DNA of 64,000 bases from a virus. Its lineage: Duplodnaviria > Caudoviricetes. The notes beneath the pieces were generated by a model that was not told where the DNA came from, made no database searches, and saw only the letters and a program-made list of their open reading frames with translations. The DNA is taken from positions 45,290 through 109,289 of the IMG/VR virus record IMGVR_UViG_3300032167_007466, one strand, 5' to 3'. The translations under genes and the position numbers were made by a program. Positions 3,229 to 53,700 of this stretch are shown piece by piece. Numbering within the stretch: position 1 is the first letter of the stretch; the number at the start of each line of letters is the position of its first letter.

Positions 3229-3403
3229 TGCTTTTGTAGTAAATTTGTGCCACTTGCTGCCGTGATTTTCCAATGATATTTCCAATCTCAGCAAAAGACT
3301 TTTTCTCCGCTTTGAGTTGCTTAACTTTATCTACCGTTCCATCTACTACAAGTTTACTTCTGTACTGATGTGGTCTTTTATATCTATGTTCATATTCGTT
3401 CAA
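3212..3403 (-). CDS. Small HTH DNA-binding protein
   Basis: KSFAEIGNIIGKSRQQVAQI helix-turn-helix pattern. Confidence 0.65.
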   Translation of the reverse strand: MNEYEHRYKRPHQYRSKLVVDGTVDKVKQLKAEKKSFAEIGNIIGKSRQQVAQIYYKSIARGC

Positions 3404-3582
3404 GCTGACACCTTCTCTCTGATATTTTCCATATGATTTTCAGTTCTCGCTTCCGCTACCAACATATCAACTAAGTCATTATAACATTCATCCCAAGTAT
3501 CACCGCTTAATACGAAATTTCCGTTGCTATCATGTACTTCATAATGTTCTTTAACTTGTACGATCCTATGTGTATTATCCAT
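3400..3582 (-). CDS. Hypothetical protein
   Basis: ORF in array with GGAG RBS. Confidence 0.65.
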   Translation of the reverse strand: MDNTHRIVQVKEHYEVHDSNGNFVLSGDTWDECYNDLVDMLVAEARTENHMENIREKVSA

Positions 3583-3584
3583 AA

Positions 3585-3761
3585 TTAAATAGCTCCCATT
3601 CTTAATTTAATCTTTATCTCTGTTAAGTCTGCAAGAGTATTCATAACTTCTAATTCATGTTCAAAATCAATGGGTTTATCAGATGTTTTCCCATAATCTC
3701 TTGCTATGATACTTCTTTGCAAGTTAGATATTTCGCCAATCGTCATATTTGATACTTTCAT
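3585..3761 (-). CDS. Hypothetical protein
   Basis: GGAGG RBS before ATG 3761. Confidence 0.65.
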   Translation of the reverse strand: MKVSNMTIGEISNLQRSIIARDYGKTSDKPIDFEHELEVMNTLADLTEIKIKLRMGAI

Positions 3762-3790
3762 ATTTGCCTCCTGTTGAAATGCGACTTCTA

Positions 3791-4075
3791 TCAAGAAATT
3801 ACCTCAAAATTGCTCTTGAAAATTTCCTCTGATATTACTTTAAACATTCTTCTATCTGATACCCTTCTGATAATATAATCAGTAGGTTTTACAACTGATT
3901 CATAATTATGATGTTCCAAATTACAAATATGTAAATCTGGCACAATTACTCTTACACATAAATCCAACTTCTCTGTTATAAACTTCTTGCATTTTTCCAC
4001 TTGTTCTGAAGTGTATTTTTCATATCTGATTGCTTCATATTCATTTTCCGTAAAAAGATTTCTAATCTTTAACAT
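3791..4075 (-). CDS. Hypothetical protein
   Basis: ORF in array with RBS. Confidence 0.65.
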   Translation of the reverse strand: MLKIRNLFTENEYEAIRYEKYTSEQVEKCKKFITEKLDLCVRVIVPDLHICNLEHHNYESVVKPTDYIIRRVSDRRMFKVISEEIFKSNFEVIS

Positions 4076-4116
4076 ATCCTCTACCTCCAATCCGATTGAA
4101 TACGAGATTTATTGCT

Positions 4117-4848
4117 TTATGCAATCTTTAATTTGCTCTGCTTCTGTTCCGTTTTATTAAGACTTCTGATATATTTTCCACCATCTTTTTCAAAGTATTT
4201 CAGATATCCTTCCTCAATCATTTCATCTGCCACTTTCAAGATATAATCAATGGTCTGTCCACCAGTATAATTCTTTCCATCATTAAGTCCTAAACGATTT
4301 AATCTAACAATTCCTGCAATATTTCTTGCTATGTCAAAAGCAGAATAATATTTTGTTGTTCTTGTTGTGGCTGCTTTTTCAAATAATACCTTGCGAATTT
4401 CCTCTTTTCTTTCGTTTAAGTATTCCTCATATTCGCTATCAGAAATAACATAAACTGTATCATGCAAGTTCACCCAACGAATAGAAGATAATTCCATTCT
4501 GTCAATGGCTTCTGCAACTTTCTTAACATCATTCTTTAAAATAACTCCGCTAATCTGTTGTGGATGTGCGTGTAAATAAGCACGTTTTTCCTTACTATGT
4601 TCCACTTTCCATCCGCTATCTTCCATAATTCCAAAAGATTCTATCAGGTTAATTGCTTCCGTTCTCCATGCCTCTCTATCTTCTGTCGTTTCAAATCTGC
4701 AATTACGGTCATATGATGGTGTATCAATATTAAAATGTACTTCTACATATTCATTTCCATAATCCATATCTGGATTCCAATTATTTGTAAGTGTATGGTC
4801 TTCTCCATAGTCATTTCCAATTCCATACTGATGATATTTAATACTCAT
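4117..4848 (-). CDS. Hypothetical protein
   Basis: 243-aa ORF with RBS. Confidence 0.8.
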   Translation of the reverse strand: MSIKYHQYGIGNDYGEDHTLTNNWNPDMDYGNEYVEVHFNIDTPSYDRNCRFETTEDREAWRTEAINLIESFGIMEDSGWKVEHSKEKRAYLHAHPQQISGVILKNDVKKVAEAIDRMELSSIRWVNLHDTVYVISDSEYEEYLNERKEEIRKVLFEKAATTRTTKYYSAFDIARNIAGIVRLNRLGLNDGKNYTGGQTIDYILKVADEMIEEGYLKYFEKDGGKYIRSLNKTEQKQSKLKIA

Positions 4849-5175: not shown

Positions 5176-5733
5176 TTAATTTCCACCTGCAAACTCACCA
5201 TAATATTTTTGTCTCATTTCCTCTGCGAATTTTCCGGCTTGTTCTAATTCTTCATAAGAAAATTTTCCAAGTACAGTGTTTTTCTTATTTATCTGAAGCT
5301 GTACTATCCACATTTTCTCTGTGTTACTCCAAGAAACATTTCTGTAACCTGACTTATTATTACTGTTTCTACCCCTTCTGTTTTTAGAATTATTAGTATC
5401 TAAAACAATCCTTAAATTCTCTTTTCTGTTATCCAAGCAATTATTGTTTTTATGATCTACCGTCTTTCCGTTTGCTTCCATAATAAACTGATGTAAAAAT
5501 ATCGGTCTTGCTCTTTTTAGTTCAGGTATGTATTCACTTGCATAAGCATAATATTTACCCATACTTTTATTAAGTTTTGCATACCAAGTATAAGGAAAAT
5601 TTATCAATACTCTTTCCAAATCGTCTAAATCAATAACCGTCCATATACTTTCTGCATTTGTTCTGTTTAATTCAACCCTTACAATATTATTTACTTCATC
5701 AACAATATAATTGTTTCCCTTTTTCTTTGCCAT
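5176..5733 (-). CDS. HNH endonuclease with C-terminal AP2-like DNA-binding domain
   Basis: LHQFIM..VDHKNNNCLDNRKENLR (HNH), followed by NKSGYRNVSW..W..Q (AP2). Confidence 0.85.
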   Translation of the reverse strand: MAKKKGNNYIVDEVNNIVRVELNRTNAESIWTVIDLDDLERVLINFPYTWYAKLNKSMGKYYAYASEYIPELKRARPIFLHQFIMEANGKTVDHKNNNCLDNRKENLRIVLDTNNSKNRRGRNSNNKSGYRNVSWSNTEKMWIVQLQINKKNTVLGKFSYEELEQAGKFAEEMRQKYYGEFAGGN

Positions 5734-5768
5734 CCCAACTCTCCCTCTTTAATGCCCTTTCATCTGCT

Positions 5769-6128
5769 TTATTCTTCAACATCTAATAGTGTTACATTTC
5801 CGTTTTCAACAAGATAAATTTCATCAGCCGAAACATCCTCAATGTTGTATATCCTCTCAATAGGTAAGTATTCAAAATCAATCTTTTGAACACCACCGCT
5901 CCAAAAGATATAATCCGGATTGTGATAATACTGTTGTGCAACCAAATCAGCTTTTACAAAATCCTCAACTGTTCCAACATATTCAAAGGCTTTTATAATT
6001 TCATTCCAATCCTTGTCACAATATCCATGCATGCCCCTCTGTTCAAAATCGTGCTTATCTCCGTTGTATTCCTCTGTCGCATACATTCTGCCTTTGTTAT
6101 CCGTAAAAATTATCCTTCTGCGTGTCAT
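5769..6128 (-). CDS. Hypothetical protein
   Basis: GGAGG RBS. Confidence 0.7.
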   Translation of the reverse strand: MTRRRIIFTDNKGRMYATEEYNGDKHDFEQRGMHGYCDKDWNEIIKAFEYVGTVEDFVKADLVAQQYYHNPDYIFWSGGVQKIDFEYLPIERIYNIEDVSADEIYLVENGNVTLLDVEE

Positions 6129-6185
6129 ATTCGTTTCCTCCTAAAATCTATACTTAAACCCCTAATTCTATCGTGTTATTTCCGC

Positions 6186-6350
6186 TTACGATATATGCCT
6201 TCTGTGTACTAATGCACATTTGTTGCAGACACAAACCGTTTTTAATCCTTCGTTTTTTACCAAAGTTAAAACTTCATACTTTACACTTCTTGTTTCACCG
6301 CAAAAATGGCATTTTAAGTTTTTGTCTTTCCAATTCTCAATAAGTTTCAT
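6186..6350 (-). CDS. 54-aa zinc-finger protein (not in ORF track)
   Basis: GGAGG RBS; MKLIENWKDKNLKCHFCGE...CVCNKC. Confidence 0.65.
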   Translation of the reverse strand: MKLIENWKDKNLKCHFCGETRSVKYEVLTLVKNEGLKTVCVCNKCALVHRRHIS

Positions 6351-6359
6351 AATAGCCTC

Positions 6360-6692
6360 CTAACAAGCAGGACAACCGCATTTTCCGTATAACGCTCCAT
6401 GCTTCAAAAACATTCCTATATTCATAATTTCGTGTCTGTCAAGCTCTCTGCCCTTGTTTTCTCCAGCGATGTAGACAAAGCATCTTTTGACAATTTCCTT
6501 CGGCAATAATACCGCTTCTTTTGTGATAACCTTTATTCCAATACCCAAAGACAACATCACATCTCCGGCACCGCCATCAACTATATATCGTCTTATTTCC
6601 TCTGTTGCTCTGTTTAAATGATCTTGTGTTAAGGCTACACCAAAGAATAATTTTTCCGTCAAGTCTCTATATTCAAAGTAATTACAAGTCAT
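6360..6692 (-). CDS. Hypothetical protein
   Basis: GGAGG RBS before ATG 6692. Confidence 0.65.
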   Translation of the reverse strand: MTCNYFEYRDLTEKLFFGVALTQDHLNRATEEIRRYIVDGGAGDVMLSLGIGIKVITKEAVLLPKEIVKRCFVYIAGENKGRELDRHEIMNIGMFLKHGALYGKCGCPAC

Positions 6693-6721
6693 ATTAAATC
6701 CCTCCGTGTAAAGCAATTTGT

Positions 6722-6961
6722 TTAAAACTGTATTTCCGCTTCTTCTCTCCATCCAATAGGCTTATAACCCAACGCGGAAAGAAAACTCTGATAAATAGTG
6801 TTTAACCACTCCACTCTTGTTTTATCATTGCCTTTGATCCTGTCAAAAACATTCATATCAATAAAACGCTTCTGTTCTTCTTCCGTTAGCTTCTGCCAAG
6901 TCCACGACTTTTTAATAACATTCTGAAAGTAATTTTCCACCGTCATTGTGTGTTTTGCCAT
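6722..6961 (-). CDS. Hypothetical protein
   Basis: GGAGG RBS. Confidence 0.7.
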   Translation of the reverse strand: MAKHTMTVENYFQNVIKKSWTWQKLTEEEQKRFIDMNVFDRIKGNDKTRVEWLNTIYQSFLSALGYKPIGWREEAEIQF

Positions 6962-6973
6962 TTTCAAAACCTC

Positions 6974-7102
6974 CTACTCTACATCAAATTCTTCTATGTC
7001 AAAATTTCCGTCATACTTATTGCATCCAATATCATAAGCCTTTGTATATTCATCATAAATGCCTATGATTTCTCCATCTACACTTAATACATAAACCGTC
7101 AT
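6974..7102 (-). CDS. Small acidic hypothetical protein
   Basis: GGGGAG RBS before ATG 7102. Confidence 0.6.
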   Translation of the reverse strand: MTVYVLSVDGEIIGIYDEYTKAYDIGCNKYDGNFDIEEFDVE

Positions 7103-7130
7103 AGCAAACTCCCCTTTTAAAATCCTTGTT

Positions 7131-7325
7131 TCATCGTGTCTCGTCATTGAATACATCAATAAAATAATCCGCTTTTGGAAATTCTGAAAGGTATTTTCCA
7201 CCCTCTCCGTATTCCTTGTTATATTCACTAACCACCGCCCATGCCTTATCGTGATCTTCTGTTTCCAAAACAGTTTTTACTGTTCTTCCGCTTTTCTTTT
7301 CCCTTATATCAACACAATACAACAT
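7131..7325 (-). CDS. Hypothetical protein
   Basis: GAGG RBS before ATG 7325. Confidence 0.6.
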   Translation of the reverse strand: MLYCVDIREKKSGRTVKTVLETEDHDKAWAVVSEYNKEYGEGGKYLSEFPKADYFIDVFNDETR

Positions 7326-7329
7326 TGCT

Positions 7330-7857
7330 TTATTCCTCGCTTTCCGTTGCTTCAAACCTTGCACAAACAAAATTTTCCGCATCTAAAATGTATTCTGAAT
7401 TATTCCAATTTTCCTCTGCTACTGCTTCTGCTTCAATCCGGCTATCAGCTTCAATATAAACAACTTTTTCCAATGTTTCTGTTATCTTAACTGCATACTG
7501 TCTTGTTGTCTTTTCCTCTGTTTCATTTTCCATAAGCTGACATCCCTCTGTGTTAAACATACAATCATAAGAATTTTTATTATAGCATCCTTTGACACCA
7601 CAAGTTAAATCCTGATGATGATTTCCAAAAGTTATTCCGTTGTATTCCGTTTCTGCAATTTCCTTTTCGGTTTCCTCTTTGAAAACTCCACACTCTGCAT
7701 ATAACCCATATTTCTTGATGCAGTGCGGACAAACATATACATTCGCACTATCAAATCCGTCAAGAGATTTTGAGTTATAATCTCCATAATCGTTTGTTTC
7801 TCCGTTGTATAGCTGAAAATCATCAAATTCAATACCTTTGTAAAGTAATTTCTTCAT
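7330..7857 (-). CDS. Protein with C-terminal DpnD/PcfM-like domain
   Basis: YAVKITETLEKVVYIEADSRIEAE..W..SEYILDAENF. Confidence 0.65.
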   Translation of the reverse strand: MKKLLYKGIEFDDFQLYNGETNDYGDYNSKSLDGFDSANVYVCPHCIKKYGLYAECGVFKEETEKEIAETEYNGITFGNHHQDLTCGVKGCYNKNSYDCMFNTEGCQLMENETEEKTTRQYAVKITETLEKVVYIEADSRIEAEAVAEENWNNSEYILDAENFVCARFEATESEE

Positions 7858-7872
7858 ATCTAAAACCCCTTA

Positions 7873-8340
7873 TTATAAAGAACATTTTCCGCATCCGTTA
7901 CCATCACATAAACTGCATGCAAGAATAACACTTCCGCAACTTTGACAAACCACAATCTTTTTTCCGTCCTTATAGTCCTTTGCTTCTGATAACTTGTATT
8001 CGTTTATATGGTCGCAATGCGGACAAGTCTCCTCTAAAATTTCATCTTCAACAATTCTCTCTGTAATATTGTTTCTTTCCTCATATTTTTTGACACTCGC
8101 TCTAATCGTTTCTACACAATCCTCTATGTAGTTTTTATTGCTTTCATCTTTCCAAAGTGTTGCTCCGTAAACATAGTCAACAAAATTTGTATCTACATTA
8201 TAGTTAGCATCCATAAGTATTATAAAGACAATATCACTTGTATATTGTTTATCTGCTCCTATTGATACACCCTCTAAAAGTTCATATTCAATCCCTAAAT
8301 CACTAATAAACACATAACCATCTGATTTTAATTTGATCAT
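7873..8340 (-). CDS. Hypothetical protein with C-terminal zinc ribbon
   Basis: CPHC, CQSC, CSLC, CGKC. Confidence 0.7.
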   Translation of the reverse strand: MIKLKSDGYVFISDLGIEYELLEGVSIGADKQYTSDIVFIILMDANYNVDTNFVDYVYGATLWKDESNKNYIEDCVETIRASVKKYEERNNITERIVEDEILEETCPHCDHINEYKLSEAKDYKDGKKIVVCQSCGSVILACSLCDGNGCGKCSL

Positions 8341-8504
8341 CTGTTTTTACTCTCCCATTCTTCAAACTCTTTCCATACAGATTCTCTGTAATATACATCA
8401 CTTAAAAAATAGTGTGGATGTGCTTCTAAAAATGCTTCGATATGTGAAAACTTTTCTTCTCCAAGTTGTTTTCTTATCTGTTCATATTCTTGTAAAATGC
8501 TCAT
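8337..8504 (-). CDS. 55-aa hypothetical protein (not in ORF track)
   Basis: GAGGAG RBS; MSILQEYEQIRKQLGEEKF...; overlaps the next start by 4 nt. Confidence 0.6.
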   Translation of the reverse strand: MSILQEYEQIRKQLGEEKFSHIEAFLEAHPHYFLSDVYYRESVWKEFEEWESKNR

Positions 8505-8510
8505 TAACAA

Positions 8511-8744
8511 TCACTCCTCATAATTCCATAATTCAAGCTCGTCAAAAATCCATGTATTGTCTTTGTATTCCTCTGCAAGTTCTGCTCCAATACTTCGCCA
8601 ATTTGACGGACAATTTATAGTTAGTGCCATCTGTTCAATAAGTTGTGCTGCAAACTGCAATAACTCTCTTGATTCGTCATAAAGGCTTAAATTTTCCTTG
8701 TAATATATAGCTTTTTCAATCATGCTTTTTATGATATTTTCCAT
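8511..8744 (-). CDS. Hypothetical protein
   Basis: AGGAG RBS. Confidence 0.65.
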   Translation of the reverse strand: MENIIKSMIEKAIYYKENLSLYDESRELLQFAAQLIEQMALTINCPSNWRSIGAELAEEYKDNTWIFDELELWNYEE

Positions 8745-8749
8745 CTGTT

Positions 8750-8971
8750 TTATTCTCCTTTGCAATACTTCTTTACATATCGTCTGAAAGTCGCTTCTGC
8801 TTTCTTTTTATCATTGATTGAATATGTCATTTTTTGAAGAGGATAACCGCACATATTATTGTCATAACAGGGACAAACCTCTACAATATAAATGTCATTT
8901 CCCCATACATTTTTAACTTCCATAGTCACATAATAATTATTTTCCTTGTGTTGCCTTATTACTGTTGACAT
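8750..8971 (-). CDS. Hypothetical protein
   Basis: GGAGG RBS. Confidence 0.65.
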   Translation of the reverse strand: MSTVIRQHKENNYYVTMEVKNVWGNDIYIVEVCPCYDNNMCGYPLQKMTYSINDKKKAEATFRRYVKKYCKGE

Positions 8972-9084
8972 ATTAAAACATCCCTCCGCTTTAAAATCTT
9001 GCTTTCAAAGTGTTTTTTCCATAAAAATAGAGTGACCTATGTATTAAACACATAAATCACTCTGTAAATGTTTTTTAATATCAA

Positions 9085-9306
9085 TCAATTTTCTGTAAAA
9101 ACTCCGCTATTGATGCAAACAGTAATTAACACATGCCCATTATTGCCCGGGGCTATAGCCGTAAGTGTTGCCTCTTTATATCTACTCATCTTTTTTTTAT
9201 CCTCTAAAGAAAAATCGTCAACATAACTATATTCTTCATTTGTTGCATCTTCAACCAATATATCGCAATCTACAACCATATATCCACTAATATCTTTTAA
9301 TTTCAT
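9085..9306 (-). CDS. Hypothetical protein in a self-contained moron
   Basis: GGAGG RBS; own promoter (9331-9359) and terminator (9029-9063). Confidence 0.7.
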   Translation of the reverse strand: MKLKDISGYMVVDCDILVEDATNEEYSYVDDFSLEDKKKMSRYKEATLTAIAPGNNGHVLITVCINSGVFTEN

Positions 9307-9330
9307 AACAAAACCCTCCTTTCATATGTT

Positions 9331-9359
9331 ATTATACCAAATTAATCTTGAAAATTCAA
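9331..9359 (-). promoter_or_regulatory. sigmaA promoter
   Basis: TTGAAT, 17 nt, TGGTATAAT. Confidence 0.7.
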
Positions 9360-9423
9360 GTCTGTATGAGTGATTTATGTATTTAATTGTCAAGGTTCAA
9401 ATTAATATTTTTCAAAAACCGCT

Positions 9424-11092: not shown

Positions 11093-11428
11093 TTATTTCT
11101 GTATTTCTTCAATAAACTTTTCAACAAGTTTTTCAAGCTTCTTTTGTTGTTCTTCGTATTTGATAGAATAATCTTTAAAAAGTGCTTCTGCTTTTGCTTC
11201 GTATTTTTCAGTTATTCTATAATCAATTCTAATTCCCGGCATGCTTCTGTAACCTGTGCAAATTGCTATATTGCCGTTGTCAAGTGAAAATACATCGTAA
11301 TTCCAACCATAAACACCGCTATTATAACCGACTTTGTTTGACCTTCTTAAAAGACATTGTAATTCACAATAACCAATACAATATATTTTTTTGTAACCGT
11401 TCTGTATTTCTTTTCTTGTCATTTTCAT
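11093..11428 (-). CDS. Hypothetical protein
   Basis: GGAGG RBS before ATG 11428. Confidence 0.7.
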   Translation of the reverse strand: MKMTRKEIQNGYKKIYCIGYCELQCLLRRSNKVGYNSGVYGWNYDVFSLDNGNIAICTGYRSMPGIRIDYRITEKYEAKAEALFKDYSIKYEEQQKKLEKLVEKFIEEIQK

Positions 11429-11499
11429 TTTTAATACCTCCAAATATTTCATAGAATTACTGTTTTATAGTGTTTCTGCCCTCTGTTATGCCCTCTGTA

Positions 11500-11844
11500 T
11501 TAATTAATATAATCGTTGTAATCACTCTGTAATTCGCCTTTTATAATCTCATTATGCAGGCACTTAAGCTCCCATTTTAAATAATTTATAGATTGCTTCA
11601 GCATTGCATCAAGTTCTTTTTTGCTGATGCCTTTAAAGTTATCATTTACGGCTTTAAAGTAGTTATATGCTTCGCTGCTAAACTCATAATCGAATAATAT
11701 ACAAGATGTCATATCATAACAGAAATCAAACGCTTTTTTAACCTGATACCATAAATATTGATGATCTGCTTTTTTGGATGCCGTTGTGTTTAGTGCCTTT
11801 ACAGTTTCAATACATTTTAAAACATTGTTATAATTGTATGTCAT
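11500..11844 (-). CDS. Hypothetical protein
   Basis: GGAGG RBS. Confidence 0.65.
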   Translation of the reverse strand: MTYNYNNVLKCIETVKALNTTASKKADHQYLWYQVKKAFDFCYDMTSCILFDYEFSSEAYNYFKAVNDNFKGISKKELDAMLKQSINYLKWELKCLHNEIIKGELQSDYNDYIN

Positions 11845-41650: not shown

Positions 41651-42101
41651 TATAGTGAGTAGATCAAAATTTAATGTAGATAAAGATACTGAAAAACGTA
41701 CATATAACGGGATTGTTTTTGACTCTATCTTAGAGATGAAATATTATCGAGATGTACTTTGTCCATTAGTGAAGAGTGGCGATGTGGTAAAATACGAATT
41801 ACAAAAGCCATATGAGTTACAACCAAAGTTTATACACGATAATAAGTCCGTACAACCCATTAAATACGTGGCAGATTTTTTTATTGTTTACAAAGATGGT
41901 CATGAAGAAGTAATTGACACAAAGGGTTGCCCAGATAGTGTAGCAATTATAAAAAGAAAATTGTTTTGGTATCACTACCCAAATGTTAATTATAAGTGGG
42001 TTTGCTTTTCAAAAATTGATGGGGGCTGGTGTGATTATGAATACGTCAAAAAAAAGAGAGCAGAGAGAAAAAGAAATAAAAACAAAATGGAAATTTCATG
42101 A
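41640..42101 (+). CDS. DUF1064-like PD-(D/E)xK nuclease
   Basis: SKF..YNGIVFDS..E..Y, LQ..YELQP, YVADF, IDTKG; start may be GTG 41655. Confidence 0.8.
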   Translation: MENNIVSRSKFNVDKDTEKRTYNGIVFDSILEMKYYRDVLCPLVKSGDVVKYELQKPYELQPKFIHDNKSVQPIKYVADFFIVYKDGHEEVIDTKGCPDSVAIIKRKLFWYHYPNVNYKWVCFSKIDGGWCDYEYVKKKRAERKRNKNKMEIS

Positions 42102-43233
42102 TGGAGAAAATATTAAAGACGACAAAAGAAATTTAACGATTTTAGCTAAAGAAACAAAAGATTATTTGTACGGCAATTATATTTACAAACAAAAATGGTA
42201 TAAGTTGCTGTGCAATAAATGTGGGTACGATTCAATTTACATTGATGAGTCCCATTTATCTCAAGGTAGAGGATGTCCCGTATGTAGCGGAAGAAAAGTT
42301 GCAGTTGGAATTAACGATATAAACACGACGGCAAATTGGATGCTACAATACATAAAAAACAAAGAAGATGGGAGTTTGTACACAAAAACTTCAAATTCAT
42401 ATATCGATTTTAAATGTCCTGATTGTGGAGATATTTCTTCGCAAAAAATTTCAAATGTCTATAATTTTGGATTTCGATGTAAAAACTGTCGAGATGGAAT
42501 ATCATACCCAAATAAATTTTCATATGAGTTTTTAAGGCAGTTACCTGTACAAAATGTTTGTCATGAATATATTCCTGATTGGGGAAATGGCAAAAGATAT
42601 GACAATTACTTTGAGTATGATGGTGAAAAATATATACTAGAAATGGATGGTGGCTTTCATTATCAGTACAATACTTTAAACAAAAAGACGGCAGACGAAG
42701 AACAAAAAAATGATTACATAAAAGATTTGTTAGCTAAAAATCATAGCATTACTGTTATTAGAATTAAAAGTGTTAAGAACGAATTGAATTATATGAAAGA
42801 ACAGTTTGAATCTAATGATATACTTAACTCTATGTTTGATTTAAGCAATATTGATTTTAAAAAATGCCATGAGTTTGCTATGTCTAATCTTTCAAAAGAA
42901 GTTTGTGATTATTATAACCATTGTCAAAGTGTTAATGGATGCATTGAAAAATTTGGACTAGCAAGAATAACTATTTTAACTTATTTAAAAAATGGTTATG
43001 TTTTGGGATGGGGTGACTATACCCCACAAAAATCATACAAACAACGCTCTTTAAATAGGAAATCAAAGTCTATTTCAATTATAAAAGATGGCGAAGAAAT
43101 TATATATGATTCTACTAAACAACTATGTTTTGATATAAAACATAAATTTGGGATAGATTTGAAAGTACAAGGGGTAAGAAATGCTGCGAGAGAAAATATA
43201 AAATATAAAAAATGTATATTTAGATATGTTTAA
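42037..43233 (+). CDS. Zinc-ribbon-repeat endonuclease (very-short-patch-repair/DUF559-like), homing-endonuclease-like
   Basis: CNKCG, CPVC, CPDCG, CKNC; RYD.Y..ILEMDG..H; D.IKD.LA....VIRI. Confidence 0.7.
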   Translation: MNTSKKREQREKEIKTKWKFHDGENIKDDKRNLTILAKETKDYLYGNYIYKQKWYKLLCNKCGYDSIYIDESHLSQGRGCPVCSGRKVAVGINDINTTANWMLQYIKNKEDGSLYTKTSNSYIDFKCPDCGDISSQKISNVYNFGFRCKNCRDGISYPNKFSYEFLRQLPVQNVCHEYIPDWGNGKRYDNYFEYDGEKYILEMDGGFHYQYNTLNKKTADEEQKNDYIKDLLAKNHSITVIRIKSVKNELNYMKEQFESNDILNSMFDLSNIDFKKCHEFAMSNLSKEVCDYYNHCQSVNGCIEKFGLARITILTYLKNGYVLGWGDYTPQKSYKQRSLNRKSKSISIIKDGEEIIYDSTKQLCFDIKHKFGIDLKVQGVRNAARENIKYKKCIFRYV

Positions 43234-45293: not shown

Positions 45294-46388
45294 ATGGACG
45301 GTTTAGAAAAGTATATTTCGTGGGATGTTGATGAAGATAGTGGGTTTAGACGGCTTGTGCTTAATGAATTTGAGTCACCCATAACAGAAATGGAAAAGTT
45401 CAAAGAATATACAGGAGACAAGAAGGTTTGCCCAATATGTAAGCGCAATCTCCCTAAAAACACATATTTTTTCGCATCTGGAGGTAGCAAACGATACGGT
45501 GGACTTCATTCCTATTGTAAGGAGTGTGAAGGAACAAGGTTTGGTTGGGGCAGAAAGAAGAATGCTGAATTATATGCAGAAAACAAAAAATACTGTAGAA
45601 CTTGCGACAGAATATTACCCTTAAACGAATTATATTTCCAAAAAAGTGATGGTAGATGCAATACAAAAACAGGATTTTCAAGCAATTGCAAGGAGTGTCA
45701 AAATCACACATTTGGAACAAGAAGTATTAATGCGTTTAAAGATGATTTTGGTATTCGTGACGGATATAAAGTGTGTCATAATTGTATGTTGGAAATGCCA
45801 GACACCGATGATTATTTTTATCATAAGTCAGAAAGAGAATATGGACAAACTGTTTGCAAGTCATGTATCGCAAAAAAGGCAGGACGAGAACTTACTAACT
45901 CCAGACATTTAAACAAAAGTAAAGTTTATATGTTGAAGGAAGGCGAAAAATTTTGTACATCTTGTGGAGAAATATTTAGAGAAGAAGATATTTTAAGAAA
46001 TGGTGGTGTTTGTTTGTGTGACAAGTGTTATCGTGACAGAAACAAATATACATACGAAAAACGTCGTTCAAGAAAAATGAATTTAATATCCGATTTGACA
46101 CAAGAAGAATGGAATGACACTTTAAGATATTTTGAGCACAAATGTGCGTATTGTGGAATTGAAGAAAGTGAATGTTTTGGTAGACATCATAAATATTTAG
46201 CACAAGAACATATAGTCGCACTAACAAAAGGTGGTCATTTTACAAAAAATAATATTATACCGGTGTGTCCTGTTTGTAATTCTTCTAAAGGCAACAAATC
46301 GCTTGACGCCTTTTATAATAGATGTGATAGTTTCACAACAGAAATGTACAAAAAAGTTAAGGATTTTGTTAGTGCAAATTCCTGTTAA
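45294..46388 (+). CDS. Free-standing HNH endonuclease with repeated CxxC fingers
   Basis: CAYCG, QEHIV..GG, NIIPVC.VCNSSKG. Confidence 0.85.
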   Translation: MDGLEKYISWDVDEDSGFRRLVLNEFESPITEMEKFKEYTGDKKVCPICKRNLPKNTYFFASGGSKRYGGLHSYCKECEGTRFGWGRKKNAELYAENKKYCRTCDRILPLNELYFQKSDGRCNTKTGFSSNCKECQNHTFGTRSINAFKDDFGIRDGYKVCHNCMLEMPDTDDYFYHKSEREYGQTVCKSCIAKKAGRELTNSRHLNKSKVYMLKEGEKFCTSCGEIFREEDILRNGGVCLCDKCYRDRNKYTYEKRRSRKMNLISDLTQEEWNDTLRYFEHKCAYCGIEESECFGRHHKYLAQEHIVALTKGGHFTKNNIIPVCPVCNSSKGNKSLDAFYNRCDSFTTEMYKKVKDFVSANSC

Positions 46389-46467: not shown

Positions 46468-48603
46468 ATGGATGATTTTATAGTCAAACTTATTGCGAGG
46501 TTGGATTCAAGCAAAACTCCCGACGATTTAAGAAAGATTGAACAAGAGTTAAATAAAAAAAAGATAAATCTTCAAACTGTATTAGATACAGCTACTACTC
46601 AAAAAGAACTTAAAAACCTTGCAAAACAGATGCGAGAAGTCTTAAAATCTGAGGGTATTGATATTGATACAAGCACCATTTTAAGTTCATTAAAAAAAGC
46701 ACAAAAAGCAGCCGAAGATGCCAACAAAGCACAACAAGAAGGAACAAAAGAAAATATCCGTCTTCGCAAACAAGAGCTGGAGAATATTAGACAGAAAAAC
46801 AAAGAGTTGGCGGCTGAAACCGATACAATCAAAAAGACCACTGCAAATGCAAAAGCGAGACATCGAGAGGAAATGGAAGCCATTGATGCCGAAAGGGAGG
46901 CACTTGCTAAGAAAAGAAGGCTTGAAGATGAAAGAGCACGAAAATCTACTTCTCAAACAAAAATGGACAATATCAAGTTTTCTTTGGATAACGGGCATGG
47001 TGTTAGTGCATATCAAAACAGAATAAATTCTCTTATTGCTGACTTTGAAAGATACGGTGTTGCAACAAACAAAGCAGAAGCCGAAACAGCTCAGCTACAA
47101 CAGATTTTAAATAATATGAAAGGGATGTCTGGTGAGCAATTAATAGCCGAAGCAGACAGACTCGAACAAGAATTTAAAGCCGTCAAGGTTTCTGTTGACC
47201 AAGCAAAGTTGTCTTTTGATAAATTTAACCAACCCGTTTCAACAGAAAAGGCTTCGTCATTAATTCTGAGAATAAACACATTTTTAAGCAAGAACACTAA
47301 AATAACCGAAGAGGCAAAGGTTAAGTTACAGGAATATGTGCGCTTGCTTGAGGGTGGCGGTGTAACGCTTGGAAAGTGGAATGAGTATAACAATGAACTC
47401 AAAAAAGTAGAAACCTCAATGCGTGGTCTTGGTAGACTTGGTGCTAACTTAAGACAACAAATGAAACAGGCTGCCGAAAGCTTTACTCAATGGGTTTCTG
47501 TAAGTTCTGCAATTATGTTGGTTATCTCAAAAACCAAACAAGCAATGACTGAACTTAAAGAGGTTAACACACTTTTAACTGAGATTAGCAAGGCAAACGA
47601 AAACCTTTCCAAATCCCAATTAAAAGGCATTGGGAACAACGCGTTTGATGTTGCAAGTGATTACGGTAAAAAGGCAACTGATTATCTCGCTGGCGTTCAA
47701 GAAATGTCGAGAGCTGGTTATTATGATACAGCCGAAGAAATGGGTGAGCTTTCAGTAAAAGCTCAGGGTGCTGGCGATATGACGGCAGAAGTTGCAAACA
47801 AATTCATTGTGGCAACTGATAAAGCATATATGCTTGGCGGCTCGTTAAAAGATTTGACAAGCATTATGGATGGCGTAAACTACATAACCAATCATAATGC
47901 AATAAATATGACTGAACTCTCGGAAGGATTTTCAGTTGTAGCGTCTACGGCTTCATCTTTTGGTGTAGAAGCAAACGAATTAACTGCCGCACTTGCGACT
48001 ATGGGCTCAAGAACTCAACAGAGTGGTTCTGAGGTAGCCCGTGCATTCCGTGCAATTTTACTTAATATTAGGCAGGTTTCCGATGAAGAAGAAGGTATCG
48101 ATGCCGAGGGTCTTACAAAGTATGAGAATGCTTGTAATGCACTCAACGTTTCTCTTAAAGAAACCAAGAATGGTGTGCTCCAGACGAGAGATGCTATGGA
48201 TGTTTTGCACGACCTTTCTATTGAATATAATAAACTTGACGAGAACGATTTAAGGAGAACAAACCTTCTTAATGCGGTTGGTGGAAAACTTAGAGCGACA
48301 CAATTAGACGCGCTATTGCGTGGATGGTCTGAGTACGAAAAGATGCTCGGTCAGTTTGAAGATGGCACTGGTTCAATGGCAAAAGAAGCCGGAAAAACCG
48401 CAAATAGTTGGGAAGGCTCTATGAACAGGCTTTCCAACACTTGGACTGACACCATTGGAAATATTGCTGATTCTGATGGAGTAATTGGACTTATAAAATC
48501 CCTTGATTGGATTTTAGATAAAATAAACAATCTCACAGACGCATTGGGCTCACTTGGTTCAATAGGAACTATAGCAGGCATAACACTTAACAAAAAGCTG
48601 GGT
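46468..48603 (+). CDS. Tail tape measure protein, exon 1
   Basis: Helical protein with TP901-type TMP core (N...INM.EL, SG.EV.RA); ends KKLG at GGT|TAA. Confidence 0.9.
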
Positions 48604-49145
48604 TAATTATCGCATTTTAACTTACCGTAGGCTAAATGGTCTTGCGAGGCTCAGTGGTATATCTCGTGCCGGAATGAAAGATGTCTGGATAAAACACAAA
48701 GACAAATGGTTATTCATTTTAAGATATACCTATGTTGTAAAATAAAATAAATAAACTGTATGGTAAGGTACAGGCTGTTATATATCTAAGTGTCAACTAC
48801 TTAGATTTGGGATTTAGAAATAACCCAACAAGGACGGGAAAGGCTCACGTGACTCTATAAATTAAGCGTGATGACCCAATTCGCAGAGGGGCGTACTGCT
48901 TTTAGTAAGTGCCACTCCCATCGACTATTAGACAGACACGGATAAACGAAAGTGGATACGTGAAGATATAGTCAAGCCGCCAACCTTGAGTAAGTTGGTA
49001 AAAAGTTGTTCGTTTGTCGTATGCGAAAGCCGAAATACGATGAGTAACACATCTCTTTTATTAGTCTGTATGTGTGAACAGATAATAAAATAAAGTGTAT
49101 TCGTGCGATAATTATAATTTACAATATATAAAGGATTATAGTACG

Positions 49146-49331
49146 ATGATCAAAACAAACAATAAGACAGCAAAGCACTTATTGCTTGATAGTGGAAAAG
49201 CAAGCACAAATAACGAGTGTTTTGACAGAGCAAACGATGTTATTAAAATTAAAACTGATGTTGTTACAGATACGCAAGGGAATATAATAATAATTGAAAC
49301 ACCTCGACCAGAGTATTTATACACATTATAG
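49146..49331 (+). CDS. 61-aa intron-borne sense-strand peptide
   Basis: AAGGA RBS, ATG 49146; C-terminus similar to the convergent 53-aa peptide. Confidence 0.55.
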   Translation: MIKTNNKTAKHLLLDSGKASTNNECFDRANDVIKIKTDVVTDTQGNIIIIETPRPEYLYTL

Positions 49332-49332
49332 T

Positions 49333-49362
49333 AAAACAGGAGACAGTTATTTGTCTCCTGTT
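49333..49362. terminator. Hairpin between the convergent intron-borne genes
   Basis: AACAGGAGACA-gttatt-TGTCTCCTGTT; T-tract on the minus strand. Confidence 0.65.
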
Positions 49363-49508
49363 AGTATTTCAGAATTATTTTCCGATTCTTTGAGAGAAAA
49401 GGTTTCTACTAAATATTCTGGTTTTGGGGTTACGACATTAATCGGAACGCCCTTGCTATCTGTTAACTGAATATCTGTGTTCATTTTTATAGCATCATTT
49501 TCTGACAT
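49347..49508 (-). CDS. 53-aa peptide (not in ORF track)
   Basis: GGAGGTGA RBS; MSENDAIKMNTDIQLTDSKGVPINVVTPKPEYLVETF...; overlaps the end of the membrane gene. Confidence 0.7.
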   Translation of the reverse strand: MSENDAIKMNTDIQLTDSKGVPINVVTPKPEYLVETFSLKESENNSEILTGDK

Positions 49509-50073
49509 CTATCTCACCTCCCTGCACATAAATTTCAGTAACTTCCTGAACATTTTGAGTCGATTCGTAATAATCAATGGAAACATTAATAGCAAAAGAT
49601 AGGAATGTCACTATAAATGTTGCTGTAATCATTTTAATCAAACTACGATGTCTATCATTTTTCTTAATGTTGAGTTCTCTATTATGGATAGCATCGTTAA
49701 TAAAACGTTCAGCCATTTTTAATTCAAGAATTTCGTTAGCTTTATCTTTTTGATTTGTTTGAATTGAATTTAATACAGCAGTGTTTTGTGTGGCAATTGA
49801 TTTTATTGGAAATAACTGCGTTTTGTATCCAGAATATGTTCTAAAAAACATACCGATACAGATACAAAACATAATCGTAGATATTATGCAAAACACAAGA
49901 TAAACACCAGTATACCACAATAATTCGTAATTTTTAAATTGCGTCCATAACAATATTAATGCACTACCAATTATTGTTAAAAATGTAATACAAGTAGATA
50001 TTTTACCGTTTAGACGGTCATTGAATTCTATTTCTTTGTAATAGAGTTCTTTGTATTCCTGAAGTAAATCCAC
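49495..50073 (-). CDS. Three-TM membrane protein, defence-effector-like topology
   Basis: Amphipathic helix, TM hairpin, soluble helix, third TM; GGAGG RBS. Confidence 0.8.
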   Translation of the reverse strand: MDLLQEYKELYYKEIEFNDRLNGKISTCITFLTIIGSALILLWTQFKNYELLWYTGVYLVFCIISTIMFCICIGMFFRTYSGYKTQLFPIKSIATQNTAVLNSIQTNQKDKANEILELKMAERFINDAIHNRELNIKKNDRHRSLIKMITATFIVTFLSFAINVSIDYYESTQNVQEVTEIYVQGGEIDVRK

Positions 50074-50106
50074 AATATGTATCCTCCTTTGTGTTCTTTA
50101 GAAAAT

Positions 50107-50712
50107 TTACTTGTGCCCGTGTAAATCCCTATTCAATGCTTCGAGCCAACCGCCGGGTTTCCACTTAAATCCACACTTCTTGCAGACATTCCTATGATTG
50201 CCTGAACCAAGAAATCCTGTGGTTAATGTAAAACCTCTTGTTCCTGATGTGATATCTGTAGAGCCACATTGAGGGCAAGTAAGTTGTTTTTCGGTTGGTT
50301 TAGGTTGAGATTGAATTTGCTCTGCTTGTTTAGATTGGTTACGAAACTGAGACATTTTGAGTTCGTATTCTATAATGTCTTTTTCTTTGAGTTGTATCAT
50401 TGCCCGAAGAAAAGATTGGTCTGTTGATATGTCTGTAATAGTGAAATAATCGTCTATGGATAGTTTATCTAAAATAGAACTGTCATTTACAACGATACAA
50501 TGTTTTCCTACGGGTACTCCACAATTTGGACACTTGTCTGCTATTCCAGTGGTTTTTGTTCCACAGATACGACAAAGAATACATGTGTTACTTGACATTA
50601 GTTCATCTAAGCTCATGTTACTAACTGGATAAAAATTATTTTGAGAACATACGGGACACTTTTCTATGTTTTCATCTACTTGATAGCCACAAGTTTTACA
50701 ATACTTTTTCAT
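50107..50712 (-). CDS. Multi-zinc-ribbon protein
   Basis: Six CxxC pairs; AGGAG RBS before ATG 50712. Confidence 0.8.
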   Translation of the reverse strand: MKKYCKTCGYQVDENIEKCPVCSQNNFYPVSNMSLDELMSSNTCILCRICGTKTTGIADKCPNCGVPVGKHCIVVNDSSILDKLSIDDYFTITDISTDQSFLRAMIQLKEKDIIEYELKMSQFRNQSKQAEQIQSQPKPTEKQLTCPQCGSTDITSGTRGFTLTTGFLGSGNHRNVCKKCGFKWKPGGWLEALNRDLHGHK

Positions 50713-50759
50713 TAACTTCTCTCCTATAATATAGATAATCACACATTTTAACGATTTAT

Positions 50760-50788
50760 ATTATAGCACAAATTGTCATTGTTGTCAA
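50760..50788 (-). promoter_or_regulatory. Consensus sigmaA promoter for the intron cargo operon
   Basis: TTGACA (50788-50783), 17 nt, TGCTATAAT (50765-50760). Confidence 0.85.
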
Positions 50789-50791
50789 TTG

Positions 50792-53700
50792 CTTGCAAGG
50801 TTTGACAGCGAAGGCAAATTTGAATCTGTATTCAAACCAAAGCCAATAGAGATTAGTGAAAATGCCAACAACTTTTTTGATAAAACAAAAACATGGGACT
50901 TATCCGTATTAAAAACAAAGCAGGAGTTTGAAAATTTAAGTAAAGCAATTGGTGTTACTGACGATAGTTTAAAAAAGTTCCTCACAACAGAAGACGAAGC
51001 TTATAAAACAAAAGATTTGGCTACATACACCAAATACTTAAACGACCACAATAAAACGCTTGACCTTGCAACATTAAAAACGAAGGCTTGGGCTTTTGCT
51101 AAAAACATGGCTGTTAATGCGGCTATTGGTCTTGCTATGTACGGCGTCAATCTTTTAATCAAACAGTTTGATAAATGGATTGTAACTACGGAAGAATCGA
51201 GAGAAGCTTTAGCAAATCTTAAATCTGAATGTCAAACAATTGAGTCGGATTTAAAAGCAACAAATGATGAACTTGAAGTTACAAGACAACGAATGGATGA
51301 ACTTGAGGGCAAGGGAACTCTTACATTTACCGAAAAAGAAGAATATGATAATCTTGTAAAACAGAACAATGAACTTCAAAGAACAATTGACCTTCTTAAA
51401 TTAGAGCAAAAAGAAAAGAACAAAGAAAAAAATAAAACCTTTGTCGAGACGATGGAGAAGGATGTTGAACAGCATGGCGAATACCACGTAAGTGATTATG
51501 GTGGTAAGGTAAAAAAGGGTCATGGTGGGCGTGACATCGGTATGAATACCGATGAAAAAGCATATATCAATCAGCAATTCAAAGATTACCAAGACAATCT
51601 TGCTAAAATGGCTGAACTCGATGCCCAGTACAAAGACGACCTTGGCAATAAACAATACCAAAAAGACAGAAAACGACTTGAAGACCAAAATAAAAAGATT
51701 TCTGAATATCTTAGGGGTAAGAACACCGAATTTACTACGGATGCGGATGGTATTGAATATATTGAAAATCCATCAAACGACGATGAAGAAAAAGTAAATA
51801 AATGGCTTGACTTCATTAATGATTTTCAGGACAAAATGGCTATTGCTATGGGCGGTGACAACGCCGAGACAAATGCCTTTAATCGAGTTGTAGATAATTG
51901 GCAATTTGATGAAGTTGTTCAAGGTTTACAAGACTTAGGAAAAGAAGGCAAAGTTACTGCCGATATGCTTAACGACCCTAAATATGACGAGTTCATTCAA
52001 AAACTTGTATATTTAGGAATAATTGATAGCGCTGACAACTTAGATGAAATTGCCCTTGCTTTTAATAATGTCGGAACAGAAGCCGAAAACTCAGATGAAA
52101 AAGTCAATAAAATGACGGTTTCATTAGAAGACCTCACATCTGCATCAGAAGGCGTCTCAACACTTCAAAAAGCATTCAAAGAACTATCAGACGAAGGCTA
52201 CATAACAACTGAATCAATTTCTAAAATACAAGAAGCAACAGGTTTAGCAGGTGAAGAATGGAGTTCTTATCAGTCAAAACTTCTTAATGCTAAGGCTGGT
52301 ACTGCTGAGTTTAATCAAGTAATGACTGATTTGACATATAAAATACTTGATAACACATTTGCAGGTAAAGGCTTAACCGAAGTCACCGAAGAGCAGATTG
52401 CAGCAGTATTAAGAGAGAATGGTGTTACAAATGCAAGTGCAGTAGCACATAACTATGCAACACGAGCTAAAATCCATGCTAAATTAGCAACATTTGATTT
52501 TTCGAATGCCACAAAAGAAGAAATCGAAACCTTATATGAAGAAATGCGTACTATGGGCTTGACAGAAGGGGCTATTCAATCGCTGTCATCTGCTTATGCT
52601 TCTGCACAGACTGCAATGTTAGAGGCTGTTTCATCTGGTGCGATAGCAAGATTAGGTGTGTTGCAATCTGAGTTAGAAGGAGTTAAAAGTTTAGCAGAAG
52701 CCTATGCATTATTAGCTGGTTCTGGAGGTTATGATTCCAATAATGATGGCACAGTTGATTATGTAGGTTCCGAAAAAAGCCGAATGTCAGGAGATACTAA
52801 AACTAAGTACTTGGCAGACCGAGAAAAGGTTTTGGCTTATGGGCGAGCGGTCGAGGCTTTGGAGAACATAAAAAGTATTAATATTGCAGGAGCAGATGTT
52901 GTTCCTAAATACTCAGGTGGCAAATCAGGTTCAAGCGGTGGTGGTGGTTCCAAGAAAAATGACGCTCTTGACAACTACCTCAAAGATGCCGAAAATCGTT
53001 ATAAAGTACACCAAGACGAAACCAAATATATAAAAGAACTTCAATATGCCCACGACAATCTCACAAAAAATGATAAAGAACGACTTGATATTATCGGAAA
53101 AATCAACGAAGCATATCGTGACCTTGCAGATAACCGCATTAAAGACCTTGAACATCAAATTGATTTGACCAAGGAACTCAAAGGCGAAAATGCCGATGTG
53201 ACTGCTCAGTACAATGAAATCCAGAGAGTTGCACACGAAGAGGCAGAAAGACTTCGTGCTATGGGTTACGATGACAACTCAAATGAAATACAAGACCTGC
53301 AAAAGACTTGGTGGGATGCTCAAGATAAAAAACTTGATTGGCGTTGGAATAATTCTACAAATTGGATAGAAGAAAGAAAAGCCAAAGGAGATTGGAGTTT
53401 ATTTGGAGACTCGGAAGTCCAAGCTTGGGAAAGAGTTGTTAAGTGGTTGGAGCAAGACTACCCTAATGCTCTTGATAAAATTAAGGAAGCAAAAAATAAT
53501 CTTGTAGATGCCCGTTGGGAACATTCTAATAATTGGATAGATGAGCGAAACACATATAACGACTGGGCATTGTTCAATGATTCAGAAGTAGATGCTTGGG
53601 AACGTGTTGTTAAATGGCTTAAAAAAGATTATCCAGACGATATTAACAAAATCAAAGAGGCAGAACAAAATCTATTTGAAGCCAGAAAAGAACAGTTTGA

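Follow-up and report, generated by a model that had tools for sequence, protein, structure and literature searches.

A proposed group I intron in a phage tape measure gene with varied, partly antisense cargo

How can a phage read an essential virion gene whose frame is closed by a stop codon and reopens only 2.2 kb further on, beyond genes that face the other way? The question is raised by the gene for the tape measure protein (TMP) in the 109-kb IMG/VR provirus record IMGVR_UViG_3300032167_007466, of which a stretch of 64,000 nucleotides (nt), hereafter called the window, was analysed. The phage is an SPbeta-like temperate phage of gut Clostridia, and the locus is present in identical form on at least 21 contigs from many samples. 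We consider it likely that the interruption is a group I intron of a lineage invisible to the Rfam model, lying in phase 0 in the TMP gene, with a complete ribozyme in its first 455 nt or so and IStron-like cargo on the 3′ side. Related loci, designated below by L numbers, were reached via a zinc-ribbon protein encoded in the cargo and via DNA patterns. The gene and its interruption comprise three parts:

46468..48603, plus strand: TMP exon 1, 712 amino acids (aa), ending ...AAG CTG GGT (list of open reading frames (ORFs); Pfam PhageMin_Tail 3.2e-19, PHROG tape measure 3.5e-56)
48604..50791, plus strand: proposed group I intron, 2188 nt, first codon TAA, last base G; boundaries identical in L013, L022, L023 and L024
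50792..54886, plus strand: TMP exon 2, 1364 aa, beginning CTTGCAAG = L-A-R; homology to relatives from residue 1

The exon-1 ORF including its stop codon occupies 46468-48606, the TAA standing directly after CTGGGT, and the TMP frame reopens at 50792 in phase 0 relative to exon 1. No Shine-Dalgarno sequence precedes exon 2 at 50792, and all three minus-strand genes of the cargo have strong ones. The exon-2 products of relatives are alike from the first residue past the proposed site (LARFDSEGKF, LASWDSNGKF, LARFDENGNF). A spliced late transcript would fuse ...KKLG to LARF... and yield a TMP of 2076 aa, with the predicted RNA junction AAGCTGGGT-CTTGCAAGG.

Where such an intron would be cut and joined is indicated by two short elements on either side of the 5′ boundary:

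48598..48603, plus strand: exon strand of P1, CTGGGT; U48603 pairs with G48649, and the pair 48602/48650 is G-C here and A-U in L013 and L024
48641..48654, plus strand: internal guide CTTGCGAGGCTCAG, composed of CTTGCGAG (P10 part, 48641-48648) and GCTCAG (P1 part, 48649-48654); conserved in relatives

The guide segment GCTCAG pairs with CTGGGT of exon 1 to form a P1 of 6 bp that has U.G at the 5′ splice site, and CTTGCGAG pairs with CTTGCAAG of exon 2 to form a P10 of 8 bp here and of 6-8 bp in relatives. Over its whole length CTTGCGAGGCTCAG complements the joined exons CTGGGT-CTTGCAAG; three of the pairs are G.U, including the one at the splice site. Neither strand of the window has another 14/14 complement of this junction, and a match of this quality arises by chance in 1 of 20,000 shuffles of the first 100 intron bases. 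The 3′ splice site, 2.2 kb away, would be chosen by the terminal G together with the 8-bp P10, which is contiguous with the 6-bp P1 on one 14-nt guide.

These pairings are maintained in related phages. The U.G pair at the 5′ site is present in six of six copies, and the last intron base, G50791 in the window, is likewise a G in all seven introns whose 3′ end is known (window, L013, L022-L024, L026 and L028). Exon 2 starts with CTYGCAA(G) in L013, L022-L024 and L026 and pairs with a guide (C/A)TTGCGAG situated directly 5′ of the P1 guide. P1 has undergone a compensatory change from G-C to A-U in L013 and L024, where exon CTGGAT faces guide GTTCAG, and L026 combines CTTGGGT with GCTCAAG, which adds one U-A pair to this helix; its splicing would give the predicted junction ...AAAAGCTTGGGT-CTCGCAAAC.... 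An earlier note on this DNA had described a frame that stops after 48603 and resumes in phase at 50792 with no ribosome-binding site, a single contiguous guide at 48641-48654 for both flanks, and a 3′ splice site at G50791. The ORF list and the sequence agree with the first of these statements, the uniqueness of the 14/14 match in the window and its retention in relatives with the second, and the conservation of the terminal G and of P10 with the third.

In all, seven related phage contigs are split at the TMP site of the window. Five of them carry a core that is 76-97% identical and one, L026, carries a part of it. The same core occupies the same TMP position in L013, L018, L022, L023 and L024/L025; the 3′ splice site of L018 is located beyond the recovered contig, and this locus is left out of the counts of 3′ ends. 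L026, the more distant member, is a prophage of the cultured Clostridium sp. WB02_MRS01 (GCA_009696365.1, contig VUMC01000004.1). The five copies with both ends measure 2188, 2076, 1752, 3107 and 5540 nt, and that of L026 measures 2730 nt. L028 is interrupted one base downstream, in phase 1, by an unrelated ribozyme (reverse-complement 5470-9419) with no detectable similarity to the core of the window; its contiguous P1/P10 guide is a different one, GTTTGCAA-GCCCC, a U.G pair and a terminal G are again present, and its 3.9 kb of cargo includes PemK and Bro-N/ANT genes. A group I ribozyme thus probably selects, through guide pairing, a 3′ splice site about 1.7-5.5 kb away.

The structured RNA following the guide can be drawn as a group I core, with these parts:

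48604..49059, plus strand: ribozyme core from P1 through P9.1, with 76-97% identity in five further phage contigs (hand model, RNAalifold)
48784-48806 and 48807-48828, plus strand: two extra hairpins between P3 and P4, with one compensatory pair each
48923..48973, plus strand: P7 (GACTA 48923-48927 / TAGTC 48969-48973) around the 3′ strand of P3 (48931-48935) and P8 (48937-48962)
48962-48973, plus strand: J8/7 and P7, GAAGATATAGTC
48980..49041, plus strand: P9 (48980-48998) and P9.1 (49016-49041), with two compensatory pairs in P9.1

The classical motifs are all present, namely ACGGGAAAGG (P4, J4/5), AATTCGCAG (J5/4, P4′), TCGACTA (P7) and GAAGATATAGTC (J8/7, P7′), and GAAGATATAGTC (J8/7-P7), CGACTA (P7) and GGGAAAGG (P4-J4/5) agree with the consensus of Rfam family RF00028. 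Covariation was counted in a six-sequence alignment of close copies (A4). The hand model comprises 95 pairs in 19 helices; 99.3% of its cells are paired, a shift of the 3′ partners by 1-3 columns lowers this to 30-39%, and both sides have changed in 14 pairs, a number reached by none of 500 shuffles. Without the hand model, RNAalifold finds P1, the P1 extension, P2, P2.1, P4, P5, P6, P7, P8, P9 and P9.1, with 16 compensatory pairs; P3 is outside its reach because P3 and P7 form a pseudoknot. Compensatory changes in L026 affect P7 (GACTA/TAGTC to GACTC/GAGTC), P6 (GGC/GCC to GAC/GTC) and P8 (CACG/CGTG to CATG/CATG). A different P4, formed by TTGGG (48807) with the second CCCAA (48875), was ruled out, as a change in L024 covaries with the nearer CCCAA. 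The core had been thought to end near 48975, which is not so: conserved structured RNA, with P9 and P9.1, reaches about 49059. The assignment to group I, by contrast, is upheld by relatives with the same core and site, the compensatory change in P1, P10, the terminal G and the covariation of the core.

Whether the TMP is one protein or two can be approached through its homologues. The uninterrupted TMPs P0252, P0225 and P0193 (1771-1949 aa), which are distant (24-50% identity), span the junction in one high-scoring segment pair, and therefore the split is derived; P0220 and P0156 contain both TMP halves in the same order. It is nevertheless conceivable, if improbable, that the TMP is made as two polypeptides, the ribozyme being a relic or cleaving only at its 5′ end, and that exon 2 is translated from the last intron triplet, TTG here. 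This triplet (50789-50791 in the window) is of start type in four of the seven variants (TTG in the window, GTG in L022, ATG in L023, GTG in L024), gene callers begin exon 2 at such a triplet, and homologues with exon-2 residues 1-40 begin at that residue. However, L013 (CCG), L026 (ACG) and L028 (GCG) have no start triplet there, and no variant has a Shine-Dalgarno sequence at this place, whereas neighbouring genes have strong ones. A relic would also be unlikely to keep compensatory changes, including those in P1, and a P10 pairing over 1.75-5.5 kb, and the uninterrupted homologues continue through the junction. Splicing of a functional intron, as predicted from its sequence, accounts better for this locus.

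What, then, does the intron carry? The interior beyond the core contains four ORFs and a hairpin:

49146..49331, plus strand: sense-strand ORF of 61 aa; an annotated gene on an identical JGI contig, with no family match
49335..49362, between the convergent ORFs: 11-bp hairpin with a minus-strand tail TTTTAC and a poor plus-strand T tract, read from the sequence
49347..49508, minus strand: ORF of 53 aa overlapping the stop codon of the next gene, Shine-Dalgarno GGAGGTGA
49495..50073, minus strand: protein of 192 aa with three hydrophobic helices (3-TM); no family match
50107..50712, minus strand: zinc-ribbon protein, 201 aa from the ATG at 50712 with a Shine-Dalgarno sequence; three CxxC...CxxC ribbons around a conserved helical segment

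All variants have just one gene in common, that for the zinc-ribbon protein. In every variant recovered as far as its 3′ part, the TMP gap contains an antisense homologue, with identity down to 31%; it adjoins exon 2 in L013, L022-L024, L026 and L029 and is situated further in for L028. Between its ribbons the protein has a near-invariant segment, AMIxLKEKDIIEYELKMSQFRNQ. No fitting assignment was obtained for it from Pfam, PHROG functions, NCBIfam or PADLOC, and its AlphaFold2 model (predicted local distance difference test 72) gave no match in the PDB below E 1e-3 with Foldseek, only rubredoxin-like pieces. The idea that it is a nuclease found no support in its sequence, its conserved residues or Foldseek. 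Because it is the sole gene kept in every variant, it does not appear to be ordinary cargo.

The other genes behave differently. The 3-TM protein has 141 homologues, in gut Clostridia, and the 3-TM gene recurs together with the gene for a peptide of about 55 aa as an overlapping pair (60-80% identity) outside introns in other SPbeta-like phages. Since the pair recurs in this manner, it is best regarded as a travelling two-gene cassette. In L030-L033 (5001-5706) it is found antisense near YomN and HU genes. An identification of the 3-TM protein as PycTM, offered by an Atlas lead (0.87), was not confirmed by Pfam on 32 members of the family. Passenger genes of the relatives encode HTH_3, SecB-like, SocA/Panacea, Peptidase_M78, DUF2513, NYN, PemK, Bro-N/ANT and AAA_15/AAA_21 ATPase proteins. 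None of the cargo proteins had a PADLOC match below E 0.09, no transposase family was found in any cargo ORF by Pfam, PHROGs, NCBIfam and PADLOC scans, and no LAGLIDADG, GIY-YIG, HNH, His-Cys box or PD-(D/E)XK gene was recognised inside the intron by these scans or by Foldseek. The cargo may serve in defence or exclusion.

How the cargo is attached to the ribozyme, and how it might be expressed, is suggested by three elements near its edges:

49070..49077, plus strand: ATGTGTGA, candidate 5′ strand of a cargo-closing helix; GTGTGA at +467 to +473 in six of six close variants, in otherwise unconserved surroundings
50739..50746, plus strand: TCACACAT, candidate 3′ strand of this helix; TCACAC 36-53 nt before the 3′ splice site in five of five variants with a known end
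50760..50788, minus strand: promoter with TTGACA (50788-50783), a 17-nt spacer and TGcTATAAT (-10 at 50765-50760); 12/12 match, extended -10

The cargo begins after P9.1, as in IStrons, the similarity among close variants ending at +456. Just beyond, ATGTGTGA could pair with TCACACAT over 8 bp, and the counterpart in L024 can form 12 bp. This short helix probably loops out the cargo and returns the 3′ tail to the core; a comparable stem has been reported in IStrons (PMC4227781). GTGTGA and TCACAC, both hexamers being absent from L026, may instead act as an inverted repeat at the DNA level. On the opposite strand TCACACAT falls within the 5′ untranslated region of the zinc-ribbon mRNA, and the interval from TCACAC to the terminal G is taken up by the antisense promoter, which lies within the last 32 intron bases. 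Its -35 element begins 3 nt from the splice site in four variants (window, L013, L022 and L024), all of which have a 17-nt spacer and an extended -10. This sigma-A promoter would drive the zinc-ribbon, 3-TM and 53-aa peptide genes on the minus strand, and the hairpin at 49335-49362, which is below the terminator criteria of our scan, probably terminates the antisense transcript. Because the promoter corresponds to the sigma-A consensus, the cassette should be expressible whenever the host RNA polymerase can use it, for example in a lysogen; expression during lysogeny is thus a plausible timing.

The earlier note had seen in the cargo a three-gene minus-strand operon with a perfect sigma-A promoter, in place of a homing endonuclease, and had viewed the intron as a landing site for morons. 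The three ORFs with their Shine-Dalgarno sequences and the promoter, with its score of 12/12 at 50788-50760, are there as described, and the family scans and Foldseek recognised no homing endonuclease; the operon was an incomplete account, in which the 61-aa sense ORF and the hairpin at 49335-49362 were overlooked. As expected of morons, the cassette has its own promoter and the cargo is different in every variant. The idea of a landing site fits intron lengths ranging from 1.75 to 5.5 kb and passenger genes that differ between variants.

Several observations weigh against a spliced group I intron at this locus and have to be set beside the evidence above. RF00028 did not match the core either at the gathering threshold or at E up to 10, in searches of the region, its sub-stretches, the whole record and the relatives; because this model misses the core, the assignment to group I is founded on anatomy and comparison. 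P3, P7, P8 and P9 are invariant in the six close copies and therefore show no covariation there. Hairpins between P3 and P4 are unusual for group I introns; the two found here may explain the failure of RF00028. A sense transcript must cross the hairpin at 49335-49362 and meets a strong convergent promoter. The duplex energy of the cargo-closing helix resembles that of shuffled AU-rich sequence (z -0.3 to -2.5), and since it is no better than that of shuffles, it is the conserved position that argues for this helix. Finally, a closely related intron-less allele was not found, and every representative protein with exon-2 residues 1-40 begins there. The alignment to related phages that the earlier note had called for thus recovered the same intron with different cargo, and an intron-less TMP only in the distant homologues P0252, P0225 and P0193. 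A search for the junction peptide gave only half-matches; as it was confined to proteins of up to 2000 aa, this negative result is weak evidence.

The distribution of similarity around the intron tells something of its movement. L022 and L023 match the core and the final 79 nt of exon 1 at 97% identity, while the exon-1 proteins share only 43% identity, and the DNA upstream of -79 in exon 1 cannot be aligned. A shared block of core plus 79 nt of exon 1 is a sign that the intron spread laterally and co-converted its exon flanks. The C-terminal half of the zinc-ribbon gene is again 93-96% identical to that of L022 and L023, and the DNA between the core and this segment is unrelated. This mosaic is a sign of recent lateral transfer and of recombination within the intron. 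The conserved core and the zinc-ribbon module would provide portable homology, the passenger genes between them being exchanged among phages. With a core profile, nhmmer detected a single copy in the 109-kb record, matched L026 in part and did not match L028; megablast and blastn gave no GenBank phage match to the region or the core, and IMG/VR scans no further copy of the intron.

Tentatively, these features may be combined into the picture of an intron lineage that is a dedicated accessory-gene slot. The core and an antisense zinc-ribbon gene, whose promoter is the 3′ tail of the intron, would be constant, and defence, toxin-antitoxin and exclusion genes would be shuffled between them; the zinc-ribbon protein would then be an intron-specific factor (a splicing cofactor, or a homing or cassette-exchange protein) and not a passenger.

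A composite mobile element resembling IStrons can also be envisaged, in which a DNA cassette bounded by GTGTGA...TCACAC enters the 3′ part of a group I intron and the zinc-ribbon protein acts in mobility or targeting, as a new recombinase or homing factor or, in a variant of this proposal, as a splicing cofactor. The architecture, with the insert after P9.x, matches that of IStrons (PMC4227781), in all close variants the variable region lies between inverted hexamers, the zinc-ribbon gene alone is kept in every variant, even at 31% identity, and cassette exchange fits the mosaic of unrelated DNA set between a core and a zinc-ribbon C-terminal half that both resemble L022 and L023. We nevertheless give this explanation little credence, as the zinc-ribbon protein showed no domain or fold of a transposase, recombinase or nuclease, the genome has a single intron copy, the zinc-ribbon promoter lies outside the inverted repeat, and the repeat is short (6 bp) and not found in L026. 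It is harder still to believe that the insertion simply broke the TMP gene of a defective prophage, with guide complementarity left from an older, shorter intron: the CheckV completeness of the record is 79% and L020 has a truncated core copy beside host genes, but the locus recurs unchanged on its 21 or more contigs from many samples, at least seven diverged phages have the same split with intact exons, and in each diverged phage the pairing for the 3′ splice site is placed beyond the cargo and not before it.

L020 (1765-1848, minus strand), from the Oscillospiraceae metagenome-assembled genome SVJK01000010.1, contains no more of the ribozyme than its 3′ half (P3′ to P9, 88.6% identity). The fragment adjoins host genes for an S-layer protein, DUF6259, a non-specific endonuclease and DUF1540, and looks like a truncated prophage remnant and a hint at the host family.

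The TMP gene is interrupted elsewhere as well. In L013 the same TMP has a second group I intron at residue 608 (11112-11562, minus strand), which is ORF-less, about 450 nt long and recognised by RF00028 with 56.3 bits; its site is unoccupied in the window and holds a 2-kb insert in L024, L025 and L028, with a 428-aa ORF in L025. The TMP genes of this phage group are evidently often invaded by introns, as are those of Bacillus cereus prophages (PMC2504315). The distant phage L002 has a 1.4-kb insert (3258-4668) with a 391-aa ORF at TMP residue 1232, with no RF00028 match on L002, and in L004, 95% identical to L002, the TMP of 2637 aa is uninterrupted. Between the gene for a YomN-like chaperone and the TMP start the window has a free-standing HNH endonuclease gene (45294-46388, plus strand; 364 aa, Pfam HNH 5.4e-07), which is not found at the corresponding place in L022 and L023; its product could serve in trans as the homing nuclease of a TMP intron. 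An ORF of 416 aa among the tail genes (41983-43233, plus strand), with a weak treble-clef zinc-finger match to DUF4379 (E 6e-4), may be a further inserted gene resembling nucleases. A drum RNA (Rfam RF02958, 53.4 bits; 24698-24801) and two tRNA genes (20867-20939 and 24856-24914) are located upstream of the structural genes.

Among known systems, the closest parallel is offered by the IStrons CdISt1 and BcISt1, multi-copy elements with an IA2 ribozyme that has P7.1 and P7.2, detected by RF00028 and inserted after a T-rich motif (Tourasse et al. 2014, PMC4227781). As in IStrons, the ribozyme is at the 5′ end, kilobases of foreign genes follow the P9 sub-domains, and the 3′ splice site is situated beyond the insert. 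An IStron insertion is harmless because the whole element is removed from the mRNA. The cargo of IStrons is, however, a sense-strand IS200/IS605 or IS607 transposon (TnpA, TnpB), whereas the cargo here has no transposase and is varied, partly antisense and equipped with its own promoter. Only 3 nt separate P7 from the 3′ strand of P3 in the window, and the intron, unlike IStrons, is without P7.1 and P7.2 and occurs as a single copy at one conserved TMP site.

The introns TMP-IVS1/2/3 of Bacillus cereus-group prophages belong to IA1 or IA2 and either are ORF-less or contain homing endonuclease genes of the GIY-YIG or HNH type (Tourasse and Kolsto 2008, PMC2504315). They resemble the present intron in being in-frame group I introns of phage TMP genes, with a stop codon at or near the start, and in being common to different prophages, but no multi-gene or antisense cargo has been described for them (PMC2504315). 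The giant group I intron ND5-717 of corallimorpharian mitochondria, whose cargo in P8 is the core mitochondrial gene set and which is removed when a permuted precursor undergoes back-splicing (Chi et al. 2019, PMC6545197), similarly holds many non-endonuclease genes in a peripheral loop within an essential gene. It is mitochondrial, and its genes are not swappable accessory genes, whereas the window intron belongs to a phage and its cargo varies. In nuclear ribosomal DNA, group I introns likewise have a protein gene opposite the ribozyme strand (PMC9548176), but theirs encode His-Cys box endonucleases, and here no nuclease signature is present.

Like prophage morons, the cassette has a consensus promoter of its own and a terminator-like hairpin, is oriented opposite to the late operon and is variable between related phages. 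Prophage morons usually lie between genes; the cassette of the window, unlike these, is inside the coding sequence of an essential virion gene. In the literature searched, the coverage of which is incomplete, no account was found of a phage group I intron whose antisense cargo is swappable and self-promoted.

The finding reveals a group I lineage unseen by the standard Rfam model and offers a practical explanation for many ‘split’ tape measure genes in gut phage assemblies. Should splicing be confirmed, accessory genes on the opposite strand would have a protected site inside an essential late virion gene. Such genes inside the TMP are outside the places where current phage annotation and searches for defence islands look. 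The principle of the IStrons, by which a ribozyme renders an insertion harmless, would thereby extend from transposons to arbitrary phage gene cassettes.

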